Counted from the stretch's first letter, positions 3,654 through 22,900 are shown. The stretch: 32,000 nucleotides of DNA from Candidatus Hadarchaeales archaeon (GCA_038823825.1 JAWBCC010000001.1:270001-302000), one strand, 5' to 3'. The notes: generated from the sequence alone by a model not told the origin. A program made the numbers and translations.

Positions 3654-4691
3654 ATGACTGTGGAATTCAGGCGCGAAATAGAAAAAGCGACATTCCGCAG
3701 TCCACTTGAAGGATTTAATCTTGTGACGCAAGAGGTGGAGGTTCGTGTAGATCCGCTTACCGGAAGAAAATCGCGTTTAAACATCCAAAGAGCCCGTCGG
3801 CCAAAACATGTCAAATGCTCTCCAGAATACGAGCAAATAATTGAAAGCTCTAGAAAAGGCTGCTTTTTCTGTCCCGAGAACATAGAAAACACAACTCCAA
3901 AGTTTCCATCTCCACTTCCGGATCGGATATGGGTTGGAGAAGCATGTGTTTTACCGAATCTCTTCCCATTTGCAGCCCATCATGCCGTAGCAGTGATATC
4001 TCGAGAGCATCACATAGAGATGTCTTCTTTTTCTCCAGTTCTTTTGCGCGATTGTATGAAAGCATCGCTCGAATATTTCAGACGGATATTCGAACTCGAC
4101 AATTCAGCCAAAATATGGAACATCAGCTGGAACTACATGCCCCCAGCCGCTGCTAGTCTCATTCATCCTCATTTTCAGCTTGTAGCATGTAGGGAACCGA
4201 CTTTCTTCCTTCATACCATGCTTCAAAAAAGCAGAGAATTTGAGGAACGCGCGGGGAAGAATTACTGGAGCGAGCTGATAGAAGTAGAGCAAAAACTTAA
4301 TGAACGATATATTGGGAGAAAAGGAAATGTTCACTGGATAGCAGCATTCTCTCCAATTGGCAACAAGGAAATCATAGCGGTTTTTGAGGGAAGTTCTTCA
4401 TTAAGTGATTTGAATGACCAGCAGATTTCCGATTTCTGCGAAGGGCTCTCAGCTATTCTTCGTGGTTACTGTGAAATTGGTGTCAGAAGCTTTAATATGG
4501 GAACCTTTTCTGCACCAGTTGGTGAAAACTGGAGTAACTGTTATTGGCTTAATATAAGGCTCGTTGCGAGACCAACACCGGCGTCTCTTTATGCCGGCGA
4601 CATAGGTTTTATGGAACTCTTCCAGCTTGAGCCAGTGATAGACACGATGCCGGAAGATCTTGCTTCCTTTTTGAAGAACTATCTACGCTGA
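3654..4691 (+). CDS. Galactose-1-phosphate uridylyltransferase-like nucleotidyltransferase (GalT branch of the HIT superfamily)
   Basis: 345-aa ORF with CFFCPEN (matching the GalT CxxCPG(N)E zinc/nucleotide loop) and the His-Pro-His active-site motif IHPHFQL, in a two-half-barrel length. The actual substrate (UDP-hexose versus ADP-glucose phosphorylase type) cannot be told from sequence alone. Confidence 0.65.
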   Translation: MTVEFRREIEKATFRSPLEGFNLVTQEVEVRVDPLTGRKSRLNIQRARRPKHVKCSPEYEQIIESSRKGCFFCPENIENTTPKFPSPLPDRIWVGEACVLPNLFPFAAHHAVAVISREHHIEMSSFSPVLLRDCMKASLEYFRRIFELDNSAKIWNISWNYMPPAAASLIHPHFQLVACREPTFFLHTMLQKSREFEERAGKNYWSELIEVEQKLNERYIGRKGNVHWIAAFSPIGNKEIIAVFEGSSSLSDLNDQQISDFCEGLSAILRGYCEIGVRSFNMGTFSAPVGENWSNCYWLNIRLVARPTPASLYAGDIGFMELFQLEPVIDTMPEDLASFLKNYLR

Positions 4692-5371
4692 AGATTTCTG
4701 AACATAAGAAATCCAAGACACAAGCCGACAATACATAGAAGGATGACAATTATTGGCACATAGTTTACTCCGGGTTTCGCTATAATGTTAAGGGTTACGA
4801 AAGGAGCAGTTTCTCCAATGATCTGGATACCCCCCGCCTGGCCGGTCCAAGGATGTATGGGAAAAACCAACAAATACTTATCTGAAGGAGCCTCTTTGCT
4901 CACTATTATCACCACTTTCACCATTCTGGCAGGGTAGAACTTATTTTCCCCTAAAATCTTGACATATGTGTCAACATATTCTGACCATTCTTCTCTTGGA
5001 GGCACCTCTACTACTGGTTGACCCGGTGTCGTGAACACAGCTATCACATCTTTTTCACTAATGGGGGCTTGATCATCTCTAGCAGAGTTTTCCGGATCTA
5101 TCAAAACCGAGAAATGTTTTGGTTCAATAATTTTGTTGTCTTGGTAAACCTCAGATCTGATAACTGCCCAGCAGTTCTCGTCCGAGACCTCCGCATTGTT
5201 GACGATATAAAGATAGACAGTTGCGTTTTCTCCAGCTTTCAAGTTCAAATTTTTATAAAAGCTAGGAAAGTCGGCTAAAATGGCTGCCTTAGCCGAGACT
5301 TGGGGAGGAAACATTATTAAAAAAATAAAAATAACCAGACCGCCGAGTGTTCGAGCTCGGTGGTCTGGCAT
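4679..5371 (-). CDS. Hypothetical surface protein with an N-terminal signal peptide and a C-terminal TM anchor
   Basis: 230-aa ORF. The N-terminus is MPDHRARTLGGLVIFIFLIMFPPQVSAKA (basic n-region, hydrophobic core, AKA site). The C-terminus is PIIVILLCIVGLCLGFLMF followed by RNLQRR. GGAGGGAG lies 3-12 nt upstream of the ATG, which is 16 nt downstream of the preceding gene. Confidence 0.7.
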   Translation of the reverse strand: MPDHRARTLGGLVIFIFLIMFPPQVSAKAAILADFPSFYKNLNLKAGENATVYLYIVNNAEVSDENCWAVIRSEVYQDNKIIEPKHFSVLIDPENSARDDQAPISEKDVIAVFTTPGQPVVEVPPREEWSEYVDTYVKILGENKFYPARMVKVVIIVSKEAPSDKYLLVFPIHPWTGQAGGIQIIGETAPFVTLNIIAKPGVNYVPIIVILLCIVGLCLGFLMFRNLQRR

Positions 5372-5387: not shown

Positions 5388-6608
5388 TTACGGAGCGGGT
5401 AGGCTATTGTCTTGAACTCTCACCCATACAGTCCCCGTGAAGTTGACCGTTGTTGGAACGTTCAGTGCTGGTACCTTTATTCTGAAGTTTTCCCTGATCG
5501 TGTGCTGCTGATTTGCTGCTAGGTCTCCTCTCAGCAATGCGTAGGTTTTTGTCAATGCAACCCAGGATCCGCCCTCGAATGGTCTGTGCTCGATATTATC
5601 AACTCCGATTGTCCAGCCTCCACCAGTTAGATCAGTTCCTTTTATGTAGACATCCACTCCGGAAACATTTTCACTGTTAACAACGACAGTGAAAGGATTC
5701 GTCAATGCTTCCTTGGTTTCTCCTGCAGTAACGCTGCCAAAGTTGATGTTATCGCTTATAGATACTATCTGCACGTAACCGATGCCTGGGCTTAAAGTAA
5801 CGTACATTGGTTTGCTAGTTTCCGCGATCAGACCGGTCCCGTAAGTTGCATTTCCGCTGGAATCAAAGTTTACATCGAAATAATAATCTATGACATTGTC
5901 TGATACCTCGCCCCACGTGTTTCCACTCACCGTTGTAATGACATCCAAAGCGTCAGATATGCTTCCTCCGCCGATGTCAACGGGGAATCCACTACCGTTG
6001 TCAGCGCATATCATCACCGTGAATCTGAGAGTAGCCGGTAGGCTTACGCCCAAGGCACTCCATGGCATCGAGATTTCAACGGTCTTATTTGTAGCGCTGA
6101 AATAAGAAGCTCCGGCGGTGGTATACTGCCACGATGTGTTATAATATCCAGTAGTAGCCACTGATGCCTTTATAACTCTCTCCCATCTTGCATTCGCGTT
6201 CACAAGTGTTGTTGTGAAATCTGGGAACCATTCATTTCCAGCACTGTTTAGAGTGGTGTCGACGGCAATATAGACGAGCACTCTCCATGCATCTGTCATA
6301 TTTGTAAAGCGCAGAAGGAAATAGATATTTTCCGTATCTCCCGTTACCCTGAATTCGCTCATGTCACAGTTTTCATGACCCTCAACATCTGTTCGTTGGT
6401 CTCCTGTGTTGTCCTTCCATATCCACTCTCCATTTTCGACTGTGTACGTGTTTACTGCGGCAGGCGGTGTTCCAATCCAGTCGTTTGGATTTCCATCGAC
6501 GGTTCTTGTCCCAGCGAAGCTAGCAGGTGCTAAAAGCACTCCAAGAGAAACTGCGAAGACGAGGAGAACTGCGACAGTCCCGCTCAAGTGGCGTATGGTT
6601 TTGCTCAT
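5388..6608 (-). CDS. Secreted protein with a glucodextranase-like / S-layer-type N-terminal domain and a C-terminal beta-rich domain
   Basis: The ORF track starts at GTG 6620. ATG 6608 is preceded by GGAGGTGA at good spacing and gives MSKTIRHLSGTVAVLLVFAVSLGVLLAPASFAG (signal peptide). The mature N-terminus is VDGNPNDW...WKDNTGDQ...EFRVTGDTENIYFLLRF...VYIAVD. By recollection this resembles the glucodextranase C-terminal / SLH-like module found in archaeal surface proteins. There is no C-terminal TM segment. Confidence 0.6.
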   Translation of the reverse strand: MSKTIRHLSGTVAVLLVFAVSLGVLLAPASFAGTRTVDGNPNDWIGTPPAAVNTYTVENGEWIWKDNTGDQRTDVEGHENCDMSEFRVTGDTENIYFLLRFTNMTDAWRVLVYIAVDTTLNSAGNEWFPDFTTTLVNANARWERVIKASVATTGYYNTSWQYTTAGASYFSATNKTVEISMPWSALGVSLPATLRFTVMICADNGSGFPVDIGGGSISDALDVITTVSGNTWGEVSDNVIDYYFDVNFDSSGNATYGTGLIAETSKPMYVTLSPGIGYVQIVSISDNINFGSVTAGETKEALTNPFTVVVNSENVSGVDVYIKGTDLTGGGWTIGVDNIEHRPFEGGSWVALTKTYALLRGDLAANQQHTIRENFRIKVPALNVPTTVNFTGTVWVRVQDNSLPAP

Positions 6609-6620
6609 GCTCTTTCTCAC

Positions 6621-13987: not shown

Positions 13988-14032
13988 CTCGGAAACTTTT
14001 TAACCGTTTTTTGACAATATTTTGTGGAAGGC
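13988..14032 (+). promoter_or_regulatory. Putative promoter of the giant surface-protein gene
   Basis: AAACTTTTTAACC (about 13993-14005) is a TATA-like element about 28-35 nt upstream of ATG 14033. GGAAGG lies directly upstream of the ATG. Confidence 0.3.
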
Positions 14033-17000
14033 ATGAGGAAATTTCCGCTACTGGCGCTGGTGGTATTTGTTTTCTGCCACATCATAGCATTTGCTACATC
14101 GGGAGAAACCTTCATTGAGCGTGATTTTTCATCTCCGGAAATTTATCTCCAGGGAACTGAAGTTGTTGATGGAAAAGTCAGGCTCAGAATAGGACCGGAA
14201 CAGATTTCTGACAAGCTGAGCCTGCGCCTGGAGAAAATTGGCGGGGACAACTGGGTCTCTCTTGAAAATATCGAAAGCTGGGCGGATTACGATGGAAAGG
14301 CGATGGTGGGCGTTAAGGACGAGTATGGAAGAAGCTACATTTATGTTCTCTGGCGGAAAGGAAGCTATTCGGACGCATTTAGAAGGTACAACGTGTCAGC
14401 AAACAGATGGGAGGTTCTGTCGAGTCCAACCGAAAGCGGGCTAGATGTAGTGAAGAATGGCGTTTGTATGGCTTGGGACGGCGGACGTTATATATATGTC
14501 ATGCGTGGTGGCGCATATTCCGATTTCTACAGGGATTTCTGGAGGTATGACATAAAGACGAACACCTGGGAAATCTTGGAGAATACTCCATGGTATCAGG
14601 GTGCAGGAAATGCGATGGCATGGGTGCGACTTGATGGAAAGGAGTACATATATGCGATAATAGGAACTACTAGCTCATCTGCTGCGGCGGGCAGGCGAGG
14701 AATGGTTTTTGCCAGATTTAACATCGCTGCATGGGAGATGGACCCGGACAACGAACCTTCGAAGTGGGAGGTCATCCAGTGGGTTGGTGGATATAGCCGG
14801 TATGGGGTAAGTGGAACCATTCCATACGGATGTGATGACGGTTCGAGCATGGTTTGGACGGGAGATAATTATCTATACTACTTGGTCGGAGCATATAATG
14901 AAACATTGAGCGGACTAGAGGAGAGCCATTTTCTGCGATATCATCTCAAAGAGAACCGATGGGAGGAACTAGCGCCTATACCTTACAACGGAAGACCGGA
15001 GGACAGATCGGGTGTCGATGATGGAGGCACTATCGTCTGGGCAGGAGATTACATTTACGCCGTGAAGGGAGGAGATGGAGCAGGACATGATTACGCGGAC
15101 AATTTCTATCGCTACTGTATCAGCACGAACAGTTGGGAAAAGTTGGCAAATCTTCCAGAGGGTGTTGGAAGAAGAAACGGCAGTCGGTTAGCGGCGATAG
15201 ATGGTGTCGTTTATTTCCTGCGTGGCCACGGTTCAACAGGCTTTTGGAAGTACAATCCTCCGCTATTTTCTACAGCTGAGTCATTTTATTCGCGAGTTAT
15301 CGATGTCGGCGCGGAGACGGATTGGGGAAAGATATCCTGGTCTTACTCCAAGCCAGATGGGATAGTAGAAAGCGTGTTTCAAACTTCAGATGAGCCAAGC
15401 GCATTACCAGATGGTTCTAATAGGGTTGGTCAGATTCCGATTTGGTATCCCGCAGATCATCCAGTTATAAGCGAGTTTGCAACGAGAGGGCCCGACAACG
15501 CATATCAAGAGTTTATCGAGATATACAATCCCACATCCTCAGATGTTGATCTCACAGGATGGAAGATTCAGTACCGGTCAGTGACCGGCACGAGTTGGTA
15601 CGACAGGGTTGTATTTCCAAGCGGAGCGAAGATCCCTGCGTACGGTTTCTATCTTGCTGTAAATGGACAGGGGTATCCAGGAGGAGTGATCGAAGGTGTG
15701 CAGGGAGATGCTCAGATGACGGATACAATTGCGGACAGCGGACATTTGAGACTCGTAGATAATTTTGGCAATGTGTTGGATGCTGTCAGTTATGGAAGCG
15801 GTCATAATTATACTGAAGAAGGACCACCGGCCCCAAACCATGGAACTACAAAAAATAACAAGAGTGTAGAGCGGAGAGCCACACCATTTTCCACAATTGC
15901 TGACATGTTGGTCGGAGGCATGCATGAGAATTTAGGAAATGCTTGCGACACAAACAACAATTCTTTTGATTTCTTTGTAAGACCGGTGAGAAATCCTCAA
16001 AATTCTTTGAGCGCGCCCGAAATTCCACCAACTCCCATGCCACTTGCCAACTATTCGCAAACGTTCGTTTTAGATGGATTATTTGAAAACATTTCAGAGA
16101 AAATTGTAGGACAACAGTCACAAGTTTTCCTAGAGAATCAGCAAACCACAATAGTTTTGAAAGGCGATAATGTAAGTTCTCCGGATTTGATGAATGATGA
16201 AGATGGAATATATTTTGAGGTATTTTCTGTTCAGTCGTACATAACAGAGGAAAACTGGGAAAATATGGCGGCCTGGCCTGGACTTTTGACAAATGGAGCC
16301 GCTTGCTACGCTGAAAACATATTGTCGGGCAGAAAGTATGTTTATGCCCACGATACTAGACATCTCTACCGTTACGACATTGCGGCGGACTTGTGGGAGA
16401 ATATCGGACCCTTGCCGGCTCAGGCATTCGCCGGTAGCGGAATGGTGTGGACTAAAGATAATTACATTTACATGACCAAAGGAGGATACAGTCTTCCCAA
16501 TTTTTGGAGATATCACATCCCAGAAAACAAATGGGAAAACCTACCAAATGTTCCGATTGATCAGAGGACTGGAAGTTGCATCGCATGGGATGGAGGAGAT
16601 AAAATATATGGAATCTTCCAAGCTGTAACCGATAACGCACTCTATGTCTTCTCGATAAGTGATAATTCATGGACAAGATTGTACACGATAGTTTATGGTG
16701 GGACCCCGAGGAGTCCGGGAAGCGGTTCATCGCTCGTTGCGGTGGGCGGATATCTCTACTACGCAGTCGGCGGAATGAGCCAATACTGGAGATATAACAT
16801 TGCTGATAACACTTGGGATAGACTTGCGGGCGCTCCTGGAACATGGGGGGCTGGAGGAGCACAAGAAGTGATAAATGAGAATATCATTTATGCGGTTGGA
16901 TTCGGTAGTCCGAGAGTTGGATTCGGCAGATTCATAATACCAGAAAATCGATGGGTGAAAATGACGGACTTACCAGCGGCGATCAGCAATGCAAACGACA

Positions 17001-20000
17001 GACTTGTTTTCGATGGATCATTCACGTATCTGGTGAGGGCTTACGGAGACAACAGCTTCTGGAGATATCCCAAGCTTTCCTATCAATACGATATATCTAC
17101 TGAGTCTTCTCTCCGATTGAACTTACCACCTGGTTACCAAGTTGAAAACTTGTTAATTTATCTGAAATTTTCTTCGGAAAATGGGGCGACGTACTATCTT
17201 GGAATTTACAACTGGATAACGGGAACGTATAGTGAGAACTCCCTTAGGCATATCGGCGACAACACGGTTGAAAATGTTCTGGTTGTGAGAGTTACCGGGA
17301 GTGAATATGTCTCAAGCGATAACTTGATAAAAATCAGAATAAGATCTTCAGAGCCGATTGCTCATAAATTGCTAGCAGATAGGCTCGTAGCAGAGATTCA
17401 AGTCGCGAGGAATCAGTATGCGTTAAGGTGGGGTTATGTTTTCTCAGGTTTGGATAATTCATACGAAAATGCGGAAATAATGATCCTTGGCTTCTCCGAC
17501 AACGATGAAAACATAGAGATAAGTGTTTGGAAAAATTCAACTTCTAACTGGGTAAAGCTTGGTGTCCTGCCCGCTTCGCCGAACTTCATGTCTTTCAAAC
17601 TTTCTGACTTGCCAGATTACTTGATTGGGGGAGAAAATCTCTTCGTGAAATTCGAAGATTCAGACAGTATGGATTGGACACAGACGACTATTTACATCGA
17701 TTACTTAGCAGTTAGAGCTGTGAAATCTTACGGAACATCAATAGTTGTGGAAGTTCGTTTTGGATCAGACAACGATCCAACCGATGAGCCATTTCCTCCG
17801 GAAAATTGGACTGACTGGATTATTTTCAACGTTGGTGACAATCTTGCCTTTAGATCCAGATATCTCCAGTATCGCATTCAACTCTTCTCAACCGATTTCA
17901 GATTTTCACCGCTAGTTGAAGTGCTAGAGATAGAACATCTTCCGCTCATCTATCGGGAGGGCATTTTCGTAAGCCAACCACTCCTATTGGGCTACGTGGA
18001 CAGTTGGGGGGAGTTAAAGTTTGATGTGGACACACCGACAGATACATCGATAGAGTTCTTCACCAGGTCCTCACCAGATGGCTTTTTGTGGTCTGAGTGG
18101 GAGCCGCTCGATTCAAGAAACATTCGGAGCCCAGTCTACAACTGCAGATATCTGCAGGTCAAAGCTATTTTATATGGGTTTGGCTCATTGACCCCCGTTT
18201 TGAAGGAGTACTCGATAGAGTACGTTCCAGATAAAACACCACCAATCGTTACCGTTTCTGAACCTAGAGACGGATTTGTGACAACACAAGATAAGATAAT
18301 AGTGCGGGGCACGGTAAGCGACGCAAATCCGGTTAGGCTTGAAATAAACGGCATGCCGGTTATCTTCGAACCGGGAGCGTTTGAGAAAGAGGTCAGATTG
18401 AGTCCGGGACAGAATGTGATAAGGATAGTTGCCTCTGATGTTGCCGGTAACAAGAGGGAGATTCTCATCCGTGGAACAATGGAGATGGGTCAGCCAATTC
18501 GACCGGCGGTACCTCCCTCAACATACTTTGTCGCCGCAATGATTGTGGGAGGGGTTATCGCAGGTATTTCGCTAATATACATTTTTGCTCCAGCTTTTGT
18601 GAAGGTAGTAAGGAAGGGGAATTTGGTTTTTTTGAGTCTCGCCTTAGTCTTTCCAATTTTGTTTAGTGGCTCCGCTGCTGCTCTTTCCACTTGGGAAGGA
18701 TCCTGGGTAAGTGATTATAACGATTTTAGGTTTGGAGAATTTGAAAATGTGGCTTCGTTTACTTCAGGTGTTTTAGCCTTACAACCGGAAGAATATTGGG
18801 GAAATGATTTTGCTGCTTCATACTATTATACCGAATGGACGAACTTGGATTCGTTTGAGAAGAAGGTCTCAATAAGGTTTGTTGCACAGGCTTCAAAGAC
18901 CCTTACCGGATTTATGATTTATCTTTATCAGACCGGAACGGATCTCACTTGGAGATTTAGGCTAGAGTTGGACGATGGCACCGGAAAGCCCAGTGGGATT
19001 CTCGCTTGGTCAAATGCTTGGCAGACTCTGAAGGTCACAAGTAGCAAATGGTGGACCGTAGATCTCCTTTCGCCAGGCATGTTGCGAAAGGGTGAGACAT
19101 ATCATATAGTGATTTCTTGGGAAAACTTCGGTGTAGCGCCTTCTTCACAAGATTTCATAAATATTAGGAGCCTTTGGCCGTTTAATCAAACGTGGATAAA
19201 CGGTCTCGTAACGAACAATAACAGAGGAGTTTTGATCTTTGACGGTTCATCTTGGAAGGATCTAGGCCGAGAACCAGTTTATATCCTGAACTTTTCAGAT
19301 AAAACTTACGAGGGGAATCCTTATTACACGCTTAGGACGGATGCTTATGAAATCGGCGTTTTCGGGGACAACGCCAAAGGAGAGAGATTTCAAACGGATT
19401 TATTGAGAAGGGTTTGTGGTATCGAGGTTTACGCTAGAAAGAGCGGCACACCCCACGACAACCTTTATCTGGTTCTGCAGAGAGGAGCATCGACATTAGC
19501 AAGCGTCTCAGTTGGAGACTCGACCACTATTGAAAATAGGTGGGGATGGGTTGGAGCACTCTTCGATGCACCTTTGAGTCTATCTCCGGCACAGTACGTG
19601 GTGGGCTTGAAATCTCCAGGTTCAACGAGCGGAAACAGGTATGATGTTTGTCTACTTGGAACATATTCGTCCTCTCCACATCCTGATCTTACCTTTTCAG
19701 GGACCACAGCCTGTTTTGTCTACTCTACGAACGGTGGGATTACATGGTCGACCAAATCCAAGATGCAGGATGATATACCGTTTAGATTCATAGAATCATT
19801 CAAAAAATCGGGCATTTTCACTTCAAGAATTTTTGACGCTGGAGATATTATGAAGTGGGAGCGATTAAACTGGGATGGAAGAATCTTGGATGGGACTAGT
19901 TTGGTTTTCCAGACTAGAACCTCTACAGATAACGTTAGGTGGTCGCCTTGGGAGGATGTTGGTCCCGATAGTTCAATAACTTCCCCGCCAGGTAGATATA

Positions 20001-20455
20001 TCCAGTATAGAGTAATGTTTACAACGCAAAGCGAGTATGTTACACCAAGATTGAATAGGGTTTTGATATATTTTTCAGATGCCTCTCCGCCGAAGATTGT
20101 TTCTGCCACACCAAGGAGCGGTCAAACAGTTTTCTCTACTACACCTACTATCGAAATTGTACTTGATGACATCTCCGGAATTGATCAAGATTCAATAGTT
20201 CTGAAGGTCGATGGTCAGAAAGTGGATTTCTCTTATGATCCGGCAACGAAAACAGTCTGGTTTTTGCCGGACAAGGGGCTGTCAACGGGCGAACATGAAA
20301 TATTCATTTCTTTGCAGGACGGAGCTGGTAATCTGCTGGAGGAAAGATGGACGTTTTTGGTCAGCGTTGAAGAAGGTCTTCGAGTGGAGTGGATACTCGC
20401 AGCTTTAGTCGTTGCAATCTTAATTATCGTGTTTGTAATCAAGACCAAAAGGTAA
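14033..20455 (+). CDS. Giant (~2140 aa) secreted/membrane-anchored multidomain protein: signal peptide, six Kelch-like blades, lamin-tail domain, six more Kelch-like blades, beta-sandwich modules, Ig-like domain, TM hairpin, a second ectodomain with an Asp-box and an Ig-like domain, and a C-terminal TM anchor
   Basis: - Uninterrupted ORF. The track starts at GTG 14024; ATG 14033 gives MRKFPLLALVVFVFCHIIAFATS.
- Two sets of six repeats follow the pattern YIY.(x)GG....FWRY.(x)..N.WE.L (aa ~95-412 and ~755-1015).
- The LTD signature is VISEF...EFIEIYNPTSSDVDLTGWKIQY...HLRLVDNFGNVLDAVSYG (aa ~478-595).
- Hydrophobic segments lie at aa 1499-1526, 1533-1556 and 2122-2140.
- STNGGITWS is an Asp-box-like motif.
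- aa numbering follows the track ORF. Confidence 0.85.
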   Translation: MRKFPLLALVVFVFCHIIAFATSGETFIERDFSSPEIYLQGTEVVDGKVRLRIGPEQISDKLSLRLEKIGGDNWVSLENIESWADYDGKAMVGVKDEYGRSYIYVLWRKGSYSDAFRRYNVSANRWEVLSSPTESGLDVVKNGVCMAWDGGRYIYVMRGGAYSDFYRDFWRYDIKTNTWEILENTPWYQGAGNAMAWVRLDGKEYIYAIIGTTSSSAAAGRRGMVFARFNIAAWEMDPDNEPSKWEVIQWVGGYSRYGVSGTIPYGCDDGSSMVWTGDNYLYYLVGAYNETLSGLEESHFLRYHLKENRWEELAPIPYNGRPEDRSGVDDGGTIVWAGDYIYAVKGGDGAGHDYADNFYRYCISTNSWEKLANLPEGVGRRNGSRLAAIDGVVYFLRGHGSTGFWKYNPPLFSTAESFYSRVIDVGAETDWGKISWSYSKPDGIVESVFQTSDEPSALPDGSNRVGQIPIWYPADHPVISEFATRGPDNAYQEFIEIYNPTSSDVDLTGWKIQYRSVTGTSWYDRVVFPSGAKIPAYGFYLAVNGQGYPGGVIEGVQGDAQMTDTIADSGHLRLVDNFGNVLDAVSYGSGHNYTEEGPPAPNHGTTKNNKSVERRATPFSTIADMLVGGMHENLGNACDTNNNSFDFFVRPVRNPQNSLSAPEIPPTPMPLANYSQTFVLDGLFENISEKIVGQQSQVFLENQQTTIVLKGDNVSSPDLMNDEDGIYFEVFSVQSYITEENWENMAAWPGLLTNGAACYAENILSGRKYVYAHDTRHLYRYDIAADLWENIGPLPAQAFAGSGMVWTKDNYIYMTKGGYSLPNFWRYHIPENKWENLPNVPIDQRTGSCIAWDGGDKIYGIFQAVTDNALYVFSISDNSWTRLYTIVYGGTPRSPGSGSSLVAVGGYLYYAVGGMSQYWRYNIADNTWDRLAGAPGTWGAGGAQEVINENIIYAVGFGSPRVGFGRFIIPENRWVKMTDLPAAISNANDRLVFDGSFTYLVRAYGDNSFWRYPKLSYQYDISTESSLRLNLPPGYQVENLLIYLKFSSENGATYYLGIYNWITGTYSENSLRHIGDNTVENVLVVRVTGSEYVSSDNLIKIRIRSSEPIAHKLLADRLVAEIQVARNQYALRWGYVFSGLDNSYENAEIMILGFSDNDENIEISVWKNSTSNWVKLGVLPASPNFMSFKLSDLPDYLIGGENLFVKFEDSDSMDWTQTTIYIDYLAVRAVKSYGTSIVVEVRFGSDNDPTDEPFPPENWTDWIIFNVGDNLAFRSRYLQYRIQLFSTDFRFSPLVEVLEIEHLPLIYREGIFVSQPLLLGYVDSWGELKFDVDTPTDTSIEFFTRSSPDGFLWSEWEPLDSRNIRSPVYNCRYLQVKAILYGFGSLTPVLKEYSIEYVPDKTPPIVTVSEPRDGFVTTQDKIIVRGTVSDANPVRLEINGMPVIFEPGAFEKEVRLSPGQNVIRIVASDVAGNKREILIRGTMEMGQPIRPAVPPSTYFVAAMIVGGVIAGISLIYIFAPAFVKVVRKGNLVFLSLALVFPILFSGSAAALSTWEGSWVSDYNDFRFGEFENVASFTSGVLALQPEEYWGNDFAASYYYTEWTNLDSFEKKVSIRFVAQASKTLTGFMIYLYQTGTDLTWRFRLELDDGTGKPSGILAWSNAWQTLKVTSSKWWTVDLLSPGMLRKGETYHIVISWENFGVAPSSQDFINIRSLWPFNQTWINGLVTNNNRGVLIFDGSSWKDLGREPVYILNFSDKTYEGNPYYTLRTDAYEIGVFGDNAKGERFQTDLLRRVCGIEVYARKSGTPHDNLYLVLQRGASTLASVSVGDSTTIENRWGWVGALFDAPLSLSPAQYVVGLKSPGSTSGNRYDVCLLGTYSSSPHPDLTFSGTTACFVYSTNGGITWSTKSKMQDDIPFRFIESFKKSGIFTSRIFDAGDIMKWERLNWDGRILDGTSLVFQTRTSTDNVRWSPWEDVGPDSSITSPPGRYIQYRVMFTTQSEYVTPRLNRVLIYFSDASPPKIVSATPRSGQTVFSTTPTIEIVLDDISGIDQDSIVLKVDGQKVDFSYDPATKTVWFLPDKGLSTGEHEIFISLQDGAGNLLEERWTFLVSVEEGLRVEWILAALVVAILIIVFVIKTKR

Positions 20456-21763: not shown

Positions 21764-22714
21764 TTAAATCGCTCCCAGTCCTATCACGTAAAGAAGGAAA
21801 AGACAAATCACGACTAGGGGTATTAAGTTCTGCATTTTTGATTCGAATTTTTCCGCGTCTTCTACTTTTCCAGACTCAACTAGTCTCATAGCTTGCACGG
21901 AGACCAGGAGATTGTAAAGGAAGAGAGAATATATTACCAGCATTATTCTGTCAAAAAGAGTGAGATAGCCAAGCGCTGGAAGACCACTCAGCGCGGCCAG
22001 ATGATATGCTACGGCCGACATAAGTGTTGTTACGCAGATACTCACTCTCTGACCAAAGTTTTTGACGGAAATTGAAAACGAAAGCAGGGAAATCAGGGTA
22101 ATGATGATTATTGGAAATATCGTTTTGAAAAGGGCGGAAATCTTAGAGCGAAAAACTGTGACACCGAAGGCGAACGTTGAGAAGTTTTCATCCGGATAAA
22201 CGTGCTCGCTTACTCGGCACCTAAAATCCTTTACTTCCCATCCGGGCACTTGTAGGTTTGGATCAAGTCCGCTTTCTTCCAAATCAGGTTCGAAAACCAA
22301 TTGTGAAATACCTTTTTGTTTGTCTTCGATTTCTACTTGCAAAAGATGCTCATCGAATGGAAAGTTTCTGAAATTTAGGGAGCCGATATATGTCCCTTTT
22401 ACTCTGTATTCGATGTAATTTTCATTTTCTCTTTCTTCTTTCGTCACTAGCTCTATCCTTGAAGGAGCGCCACGCAAGAACTCTATATTCGGTTCTACGT
22501 CTTTGTATTTGAACCATATGTAGAAATCTATCGTAAAAGTTTGGGATGGGACGTCCACTTTTTCTATCGCATTGATCCACACTCCGACTTTCACAACGGA
22601 CGGATTCGTTTGTGATGTGTCCTTATTGTCCGCTACTTGTCCATATACATTCATACTGTTGAGCACTACTAAGGATGTGGCCAGAATTATTGCAAGAGCG
22701 AGGTGTCTTTTCAT
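21764..22714 (-). CDS. Pentameric ligand-gated ion channel homologue (prokaryotic Cys-loop-less pLGIC, GLIC/ELIC-like)
   Basis: - 316-317 aa (GTG 22717 or ATG 22714), with a signal peptide.
- The beta-rich ectodomain carries VKVGVWINAIEKVDVPSQTFTIDFYIWFKYKD (beta1-beta2) and the hallmark loop LNFRNFPFDEHLLQVEIE (FPFD at 22352-22363).
- VPGWEV precedes three closely spaced TM helices. The M2 region is GQRVSICVTTLMSAVAYHLAALSGLP.
- A short M3-M4 loop and a fourth TM helix follow.
- It aligns block by block with my recollection of GLIC. Confidence 0.8.
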   Translation of the reverse strand: MKRHLALAIILATSLVVLNSMNVYGQVADNKDTSQTNPSVVKVGVWINAIEKVDVPSQTFTIDFYIWFKYKDVEPNIEFLRGAPSRIELVTKEERENENYIEYRVKGTYIGSLNFRNFPFDEHLLQVEIEDKQKGISQLVFEPDLEESGLDPNLQVPGWEVKDFRCRVSEHVYPDENFSTFAFGVTVFRSKISALFKTIFPIIIITLISLLSFSISVKNFGQRVSICVTTLMSAVAYHLAALSGLPALGYLTLFDRIMLVIYSLFLYNLLVSVQAMRLVESGKVEDAEKFESKMQNLIPLVVICLFLLYVIGLGAI

Positions 22715-22807
22715 CACAGAATATAGACATAGTGGATTTTTATTGTTTGCTTTTTGTCATACAGTTAGCAACAGATTCTGGCATAAGAATGAATTCTCGT
22801 GTGGTAT

Positions 22808-22900
22808 TGGCGGGCCCGGTGGGATTTGAACCCACGACTACCCGGTTTCCCCCGTGGTGGTCCGAAGCCGGGCATCCTGTCCTGGCTGGATCACGGGCCC
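22808..22900 (-). tRNA. Intron-containing tRNA, most likely tRNA-Arg(UCG), with genomically encoded CCA
   Basis: - Minus-strand sequence: GGGCCCG-TG-ATCC-AGCCAGGACA-GGAT-G-CCCGG-CTTCGG[ACCACCACGGGGGAA]A-CCGGG-TAGTC-GTGGG-TTCAAAT-CCCAC-CGGGCCC-G-CCA.
- It folds into a perfect 7-bp acceptor stem, 4-bp D stem, 5-bp anticodon stem and 5-bp T stem, with a GTTCAAATC T-loop.
- A 15-nt insertion sits at the canonical 37/38 intron position.
- The anticodon assignment depends on the exact intron boundaries. Confidence 0.8.

Follow-up and report, generated by a model that had tools for sequence, protein, structure and literature searches.

A large Kelch and lamin-tail domain protein of a Hadarchaeales archaeon, probably a surface protein fused from two adjacent genes

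The Hadarchaeota are, to our knowledge, uncultured or barely cultured archaea of the subsurface and of hot springs, and we know of no description of their cell envelope. Here we report the analysis of a 32,000-nucleotide (nt) stretch of DNA from Candidatus Hadarchaeales archaeon (GCA_038823825.1, JAWBCC010000001.1:270001-302000; hereafter the window) and of its largest gene, a giant open reading frame (ORF) encoding 2,140 amino acids (aa). We find that both halves of the protein repeat one plan (signal peptide, domains, immunoglobulin-like (Ig) domain, transmembrane helix and basic tail), and that homologues of the two halves, which we denote modules A and B, are encoded elsewhere as separate, adjacent genes. 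Module A carries two six-bladed Kelch propellers flanking a lamin-tail domain (LTD), and module B a core resembling the DUF4082 family. The best explanation of the whole, which we hold to be probable, is a non-catalytic cell-surface binding or envelope protein of a thermophilic, hot-spring archaeon, fused from two adjacent genes; its function (binding, adhesion or envelope) is read from domain types and the evolutionary pattern only. The gene is a concrete, conserved candidate for the Hadarchaeota surface; it does not overturn current understanding, and its value is as a defined target for metaproteomics, structural work and virus–host studies.

Two coupled genes joined in frame

Residues are numbered from the ATG at 14033, where public gene calls also begin. 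The ORF listing offers an alternative GTG start at 14024 (14024..20455, + strand; 2,143 aa), and Pfam positions, which refer to the GTG-start translation, were converted by -3. An initial annotation, made from the sequence alone, had called this the largest gene of the window at 20% of its length, which the ORF listing confirms (6,423 nt); its coordinates, with residues counted from the GTG, are correct to within a few codons.

When the last 618 aa were used as query in an exhaustive HMMER search, module B was recovered as a stand-alone protein of 622 aa (P0035; 51% identical); two more such proteins are P0183 and P0184. The three span 607-627 aa at 51-53% identity, and each has its own signal peptide and C-terminal helix. 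Other surface proteins (P0036, P0037 and P0040) carry module B at their N-terminus. At three loci (L007, L008 and L010), the gene immediately upstream of stand-alone module B (P0184, P0035 or P0183) is a homologue of module A, 36-45% identical, and the module-A TGA overlaps the module-B ATG (TGATG). These unfused cassettes hold homologous modules in the same order as the window protein, A ending in an Ig domain, a transmembrane helix and a basic tail of ~20 aa and B consisting of signal peptide, core and C-terminal helix; they differ in being two separate, translationally coupled genes. The module-A homologue of L007 also matches residues 1-469 of the window protein; it contains a single propeller, and a CBM_4_9 domain in the position of the LTD and propeller 2. 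At L007:9830-10000 a run of N separates the two genes, with the same sequence (..TGATGCGGCGCC..) on both flanks; the gap has the look of an artefact of scaffolding, and the two genes probably overlap at stop and start as they do in L010.

The joined, in-frame state is found in the window lineage (five copies) and in a second lineage ~60% identical to it (L005; P0034/L006). In the fused forms, the module A tail has shrunk to a basic loop of 8 residues, and the former signal peptide still has its small-residue c-region. Within the junction (18590-18625), an in-frame GTG opens a signal-peptide-like segment, in which SGSAAALS follows a hydrophobic core, and the +1 frame contains TGA, TAG and TAA within 15 nt. 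With the halves separate and adjacent at three loci and a single ORF in more than one lineage, sequence comparison identifies the giant ORF as an in-frame Rosetta-stone fusion of a translationally coupled gene pair, and indicates that the former signal peptide of module B survives as the second helix of a membrane hairpin. Such a fusion is classically taken to mean that its two products cooperate at fixed stoichiometry; here it predicts a physical partnership between a Kelch-propeller family and a tandem DUF4082-like family, both uncharacterised archaeal surface proteins. A separate module B might still be made, by internal initiation or by signal-peptidase cleavage after SGSAAALS.

A junction that resembles a gene boundary, with a GTG before a signal-peptide-like segment, stop codons close by in the +1 frame and homologues that are unfused, is also what an assembly chimera, or read-through caused by a sequencing indel between two genes, might leave behind. 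Five independent full-length assemblies from different samples, however, encode the same uninterrupted 2,140-aa product at 99.4-100% identity, and two contigs of the ~60%-identical lineage retain the same in-frame junction, so that we regard an artefact as essentially excluded. One of the five copies, MEM1689158.1 (P0023), lies on a 463-kb contig and is identical to the window protein; the four other full-length copies, from further NCBI metagenome-assembled genomes (MAGs) and JGI metagenomes, differ at 8-12 residues. The chimera or frameshift that the initial annotation had named among its grounds for refutation is not what the assemblies contain.

A scan of GTDB genomes recovered a single orthologous locus, L005, in the species representative of another Hadarchaeota lineage. 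It is one open frame over the whole 4,180-nt contig (1,392 aa), 60.6% identical to residues 323-1692 of the window protein, with an LTD (E 3.6e-17; 63.1 bits) between two Kelch sets and with the second propeller and hairpin also present. The survey of orthologues suggested in the initial annotation thus finds the propeller–LTD–propeller order kept in a second lineage. Identity between the two species is 77% in the LTD, 72-82% in the N-terminal two-thirds of the module B core, 65% in the second DUF4082-like domain and lowest, at 33-39%, in the hairpin; judged by these values, the LTD and most of the module B core are the best-conserved parts. The other orthologue, L006 (JGI contig Ga0496363_0011176; ~59% identical), has an in-frame TAA at L006:723, equivalent to about residue 1231 of the window protein, which splits its gene call; L005 is open through this position, and the TAA is either a pseudogenising mutation or an assembly error.

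Membrane anchoring and topology

Hydropathy reveals four hydrophobic segments, at residues 1-25, 1496-1522, 1531-1550 and 2116-2137, the first being an N-terminal signal peptide (MRKFPLLALVVFVFCHIIAFATS), and basic residues are located in the hairpin loop and in the C-terminal tail. The protein is membrane-anchored rather than released, by an internal two-helix hairpin and a C-terminal helix. No PGF motif precedes the C-terminal helix, the C-terminus reading ...VEEGLRVEWILAALVVAILIIVFVIKTKR, so the protein does not classify as an archaeosortase substrate; a paralogue-like protein of another MAG (P0002) is annotated PGF-pre-PGF. The signal peptide and surface location proposed in the initial annotation are both borne out. 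Its description of a single secreted protein stands for the signal peptide and has to be revised for the rest, given three transmembrane segments and a C-terminal 618 aa that represent a fused second gene product.

Kelch propellers and lamin-tail domain

Four Kelch families exceed their Pfam gathering thresholds (Kelch_6, 94.6 versus 25.3 bits; Kelch_4, 67 versus 21.6; Kelch_3, 52.1 versus 22; Kelch_1, 51.2 versus 20.1), and the matches fall into two sets, at residues ~71-409 and ~751-1015, each of which we parsed by eye into six blades. In an AlphaFold2 (AF2) model of residues 60-1030, built from a 22-row alignment of trimmed homologues, propeller 1 reaches a predicted local distance difference test (pLDDT) score of 80-95, the LTD one of 75-90 and propeller 2, at moderate confidence, one of 65-85. 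In the model, 24 β strands (6 × 4) make up propeller 1, its last blade being closed by an N-terminal strand, and 23 make up propeller 2, one strand of blade 5 being lost in a low-confidence stretch. The best PDB matches found by Foldseek are six-bladed Kelch domains (LZTR1, Keap1 and KLHL7/17/20), with target TM-scores of 0.6-0.72. Profiles, model and fold search agree with the two six-bladed propellers of the initial annotation. The likeness to these eukaryotic proteins (Keap1, the KLHL family and LZTR1) is one of fold and blade number, and their ligand-binding B-C and D-A loops are those that vary in the window protein; they differ as cytoplasmic, BTB-linked substrate adaptors with 14-21% identity, and no functional relationship is implied.

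One or both propellers might instead be surface enzymes of the galactose-oxidase or NanM/YjhT sialic-acid mutarotase type, as weak matches to NANM (PF24996; E 0.0015), TIGR03548 and TIGR03547 suggest, together with the JGI label 'N-acetylneuraminic acid mutarotase' on a distant multi-Kelch homologue. All of these scores nevertheless lie far below cut-off (56.7 versus 243.2 and 19.5 versus 256.35 bits for the two mutarotase models, and 17.9 versus 45 for NANM), and the closest structures are Kelch domains that bind proteins. Galactose oxidase is seven-bladed, with Cu ligands, against six blades here in a protein with 0.9% His and 0.5% Cys. An enzymatic propeller is, in our judgement, highly improbable. 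Scans of the whole protein and of its segments with Pfam and NCBIfam found no catalytic family, only Kelch, LTD, Ig-like and DUF4082-like domains.

Between the propellers, the LTD (PF00932) scores 55.0 bits against a threshold of 34.3 (E 1.2e-14; residues 476-588, model positions 7-108 of 109), which substantiates the domain recognised in the initial annotation; the absence of Kelch and LTD matches, on which that annotation would have been given up, is the opposite of what profiles and Foldseek return. A conserved C-terminal extension (SVERR...GNxxDTNNNxFDF...NPQNS) ends at residue ~665, and LTD homologues align over residues ~470-685. The linker that follows holds 3 of the 13 N-x-S/T sequons of the protein. 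Archaeal LTDs are known on nuclease or ComA-type lipoproteins (PMC5118699). Like the prokaryotic LTD proteins ExeM, Hvo_1477 and Hlac_1867, the window protein has a canonical, above-threshold LTD in an extracytoplasmic position; unlike them, it has no hydrolase domain, places the LTD between propellers and not beside a catalytic domain, and is anchored by transmembrane helices, with no lipobox. As the initial annotation had implied, this LTD has no hydrolase or nuclease partner in the Pfam and NCBIfam scans, and the contexts of prokaryotic lamin-tail domains are widened beyond hydrolases.

By analogy with LTD-bearing extracellular nucleases and competence proteins, the LTD might serve to capture extracellular DNA. 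It is the best-conserved part of module A (77%), and LTDs do occur on the extracellular nuclease and ComA-type proteins Hvo_1477, Hlac_1867 and ExeM. Pitted against this, no nuclease, metallo-β-lactamase or phosphatase domain was found in the protein or in the adjacent genes, and the role put forward for the LTD in the literature is to associate with membranes rather than to bind DNA (PMC5118699). Among the homologues found, the LTD also accompanies proteases, β-helices and PEGA domains, and so behaves as a general accessory Ig-like module. We consider DNA capture very unlikely, and, because no nuclease domain is present, it is the least supported of the adhesin, glycan-binding and DNA-binding roles that had been suggested.

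Middle region and module B

Downstream of propeller 2, the middle region leads into two β-sandwich repeats with the motif RYxQYR...SP.L; a third copy lies in module B (residues 1916-2012), and the domain is present in multiple copies in large proteins elsewhere. The core of module B, which contains one Asp-box-like motif, matches DUF4082 (PF13313) below threshold (22.3 versus 28.4 bits; E 1.3e-4). Its homologue P0087 is above threshold with two matching stretches (35.4 bits), and we therefore interpret the core as a tandem jelly-roll of a divergent DUF4082 type. From a six-sequence alignment, AF2 gives an all-β and poor model of module B (pLDDT 55.6), whose Foldseek matches in the PDB are low-TM, non-specific jelly-roll or CBM-like folds. 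A PDB sequence search with module B and the middle region gave no match, and a literature search found no paper on Hadarchaeota surface proteins or on the function of DUF4082.

A hypervariable patch on propeller 2

Differences between closely related strains concentrate in one patch of the gene. Between the window and the corresponding contig L001 there are 35 differences in 22,540 positions, of which 31 lie within the gene and 30 of these in residues 819-846 (84 nt). Across the five complete copies, 44 of the 68 variable nucleotide sites fall in residues 751-850, 4.7% of the gene (binomial p 1e-41; p 8e-10 without L001). At least five haplotypes occur at the patch in mosaic combination, and the amino-acid changes are confined to B-C and D-A loops, the intervening strands varying only synonymously. 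These are the loops that make up the canonical binding face of Kelch propellers such as Keap1. The L001 tract is 63% identical to the allele of the L005 species, as compared with 52% for the window allele, which points to imported short recombination tracts. The hypervariable cluster of loops marks a probable interaction face.

The cluster would also explain breaks in MAG assemblies of the gene. Eight partial proteins of the same 90% cluster, from MAG and metagenome copies, stop at residues 762-855, at contig ends. Intragenic DNA repeats were rejected as the cause, only chance-level matches of 20-27 nt being present, and strain heterogeneity most probably breaks the assemblies. Hypermutation of the diversity-generating retroelement (DGR) type was likewise rejected: all base classes change, synonymous third positions among them, and there is no template copy nearby. 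No second copy of the patch, and no donor of the L001 patch, was found in the window or in L001; no reverse transcriptase was found among the scanned window genes; and a metagenome scan for further haplotypes of the variable region returned nothing beyond the contig already compared.

Interpretation

We conclude that the giant ORF derives from two adjacent genes, which other lineages keep apart, with overlapping stop and start codons (TGATG), as genes for separate type-I membrane proteins. In the fused product, ectodomain A (residues 25-1495) comprises propeller 1, the LTD, propeller 2, the β-sandwich domains and an Ig domain, followed by the two-helix membrane hairpin with its 8-residue basic loop, and ectodomain B (residues 1551-2110) the tandem DUF4082-like core, a β-sandwich and an Ig domain, ahead of the C-terminal transmembrane helix. 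The former signal peptide may remain as a transmembrane helix, or may still be cut to release the two ancestral subunits from one precursor. A and B would act jointly, at 1:1 stoichiometry, in one surface complex. The ligand, possibly a glycan or another polymer of the envelope or of a partner surface, would bind to the propeller top faces and to the LTD, and module B would be the membrane-proximal partner. On propeller 2, the loop joining blades 1 and 2 and the loops on the top face of blade 2 appear to be under diversifying pressure, with exchange by short recombination tracts.

Several points weigh against this interpretation. The topology is taken from hydropathy alone, and binding and the identity of the ligand from domain types only. 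Module B is poorly modelled (pLDDT 55.6), its matches among known folds being non-specific jelly-rolls. The hypervariability is drawn from about five haplotypes of closely related populations; cleavage at the internal signal peptide is a speculation from three sequences; and the in-frame TAA of L006, unless an assembly error, may mean that the gene is dispensable in some lineages.

A more specific version, which we consider distinctly unlikely, is a polyprotein-like precursor whose internal signal peptide is cut to give a 1:1 envelope or receptor complex of A and B, the variable loops being the point of contact with viruses or partner cells and diversified by tracts exchanged between lineages. 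If true, antigenic or receptor variation would have a counterpart in archaea.

Another possibility is that the protein is the main lattice protein of a surface layer (S-layer) or envelope, by analogy with two-component archaeal S-layers, with the outer canopy supplied by module A, the membrane-bound stalk by module B and both made as a fused precursor. Such a role would suit a large, all-β protein that has a signal peptide, is anchored by a C-terminal transmembrane helix, derives from a coupled pair of a big and a small gene and exposes hypervariable loops. The Pfam and NCBIfam scans, however, matched no described S-layer family, a weak objection given that many S-layer proteins belong to no family, and the sequons are not enriched (13 in 2,140 aa). 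As a proxy for expression, codon usage is uninformative, since it does not separate ribosomal from non-ribosomal genes in the window. An essential lattice protein would be expected throughout the order, yet this architecture is found in two Hadarchaeota lineages only, its counterparts elsewhere being unfused and differently built, and one orthologue (L006) carries an in-frame stop. We regard a lattice role as unlikely; like DNA capture and enzymatic propellers, it is less supported than a non-catalytic binding or envelope protein fused from two genes.

Relatives and known systems

The initial annotation did not recognise the propeller–LTD–propeller arrangement as a described architecture, which overstates its novelty. 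GenBank already annotates MEM1689158.1 as 'lamin tail domain-containing protein [Candidatus Hadarchaeales archaeon]', propeller-rich archaeal surface proteins are established, and proteins in which a propeller 1 homologue is directly followed by an LTD occur in uncultured organisms (P0193, 1,531 aa; P0007, 1,592 aa; P0199, P0201 and P0202, ~540-600 aa), at 30-34% identity over both domains. P0193 additionally begins with a signal peptide and ends in a transmembrane helix, and the gene downstream, which its own overlaps, encodes a Kelch protein. These Kelch-then-LTD proteins differ in having neither a second propeller nor module B, their other domains being β-helix/NosD, PEGA and Big_13. The P0193 locus (L012/L013 1-17047) is a run of surface genes, encoding an LTD metallophosphatase, a Zn-phospholipase C with Big and CBM96 domains, P0193, the overlapping 578-aa Kelch protein, a DUF2341 and Laminin_G_3 protein and a BNR-type propeller.

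Within the family, P0038 (1,631 aa, from a Logan contig) has a signal peptide, propeller 1, the module-B core, propeller 2, the middle region, an Ig domain and a transmembrane helix; the DUF4082-like core stands in the place of the LTD, which indicates that modules are shuffled. Of 24 relatives checked, 11 are laid out like surface proteins, with a hydrophobic segment at the N-terminus and a helix at the C-terminus. Archaeal surface-layer proteins with propeller, PKD and CARDB domains are established (Jing et al. 2002, cited in PMC5498576). In the parts of this literature that we draw on (Jing et al. 2002; Mia14 'ARMAN', PMC5498576), archaeal surface and surface-layer proteins are large, lineage- or strain-specific and all-β, with a signal peptide, Kelch or YVTN propellers and Ig-like modules, and adhesion or cell–cell contact is proposed for them (PMC5498576); the Kelch pair flanking an LTD, the tandem DUF4082-like module and the three membrane segments with a fusion hairpin are not described in those parts. 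The components and the general kind of the window protein are thus known. New details are the exact arrangement, so far limited to two Hadarchaeota lineages, the hairpin-linked fusion and the variable patch.

Feature coordinates and gene neighbourhood

Table 1 Features of the giant gene, in window coordinates
Feature	Position	Strand	Basis or remark
Whole gene	14033..20455	+	2,140 codons + stop; identical to MEM1689158.1 (P0023); 4 further independent full-length copies
Sec-type signal peptide, aa 1-24, without lipobox	14033..14104	+	Hydropathy; sequence reading
Kelch β-propeller 1, six blades, aa ~71-409	14243..15259	+	Pfam, AF2, Foldseek
Lamin-tail domain, Pfam core aa 476-588, extension to aa ~665	15443..16027	+	Pfam 55 bits; homologue alignment; 77% identical in L005
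Low-confidence linker, aa ~666-750	16028..16282	+	AF2; sequon count
Kelch β-propeller 2, six blades, aa ~751-1015	16283..17077	+	Pfam, AF2, Foldseek
Hypervariable patch of propeller 2, aa 790-846: blade 1-2 D-A loop, blade 2 B-C and D-A loops	16400..16570	+	Copy comparison, AF2
Middle region without Pfam match, aa ~1016-1230	17078..17722	+	Faint GH114_assoc match in orthologues
Two ~90-aa β-sandwich repeats, motif RYxQYR...SP.L, aa ~1231-1400	17723..18232	+	Sequence reading; self and cross matches
Ig-like Glucodextran_B (PF09136), aa 1404-1477, last unit of module A ectodomain	18242..18463	+	Pfam 53.7 bits versus 27
Transmembrane helix 1; C-terminal anchor of module A in unfused homologues	18518..18598	+	Hydropathy, homologue comparison
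Basic loop VKVVRKGN at fusion junction, begins with GTG, probably cytoplasmic	18599..18622	+	Sequence, homologue comparison
Transmembrane helix 2, former module B signal peptide, c-region SGSAAALS retained	18623..18682	+	Hydropathy, homologue comparison
Module B core: N-terminal conserved segment and two divergent DUF4082-like jelly-rolls, aa 1551-1915	18683..19777	+	Profile, homologues
Third β-sandwich repeat, then Big_5/Big_7-like Ig, aa 1916-2110	19778..20362	+	Pfam, self matches
C-terminal transmembrane anchor and basic tail KTKR, without PGF-CTERM	20378..20452	+	Hydropathy; sequence reading

Upstream on the same strand lie genes for a GT4 glycosyltransferase, GatD, GatE, archease, RtcB and a PF02598 RNA methyltransferase, which confirms the RNA-processing operon that the initial annotation placed next to the giant gene; the adjacency has no demonstrated meaning, the unfused homologues being found in other contexts. 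The 45-nt gap before the gene (13988-14032) contains a T-rich, TATA-like element (CTTTTTAACC) and an oligo-T run, and could be a promoter of its own, a terminator of the upstream operon, or both. The convergent downstream neighbour encodes a CitMHS/ArsB-type transporter, which in all strain copies adjoins a 317-aa ORF (21764-22717, - strand) that weakly resembles pentameric ligand-gated ion channels, its matches to their ligand-binding and membrane domains (E 2e-4 and 8e-5) being sub-threshold.

Elsewhere in the window, two ORFs of 230 and 410 aa (4679-5371 and 5388-6620, both - strand) are also called in L001; the Pfam scan gave no match for the 410-aa ORF, and L001 holds no Pfam record for either. 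Rfam identifies a 90-nt tRNA (51.8 bits) at 22811-22900 (- strand) that is absent from the ARAGORN output; it is likely to be an archaeal tRNA with an intron, ~10 kb away from the genes for archease and the tRNA-splicing ligase RtcB.

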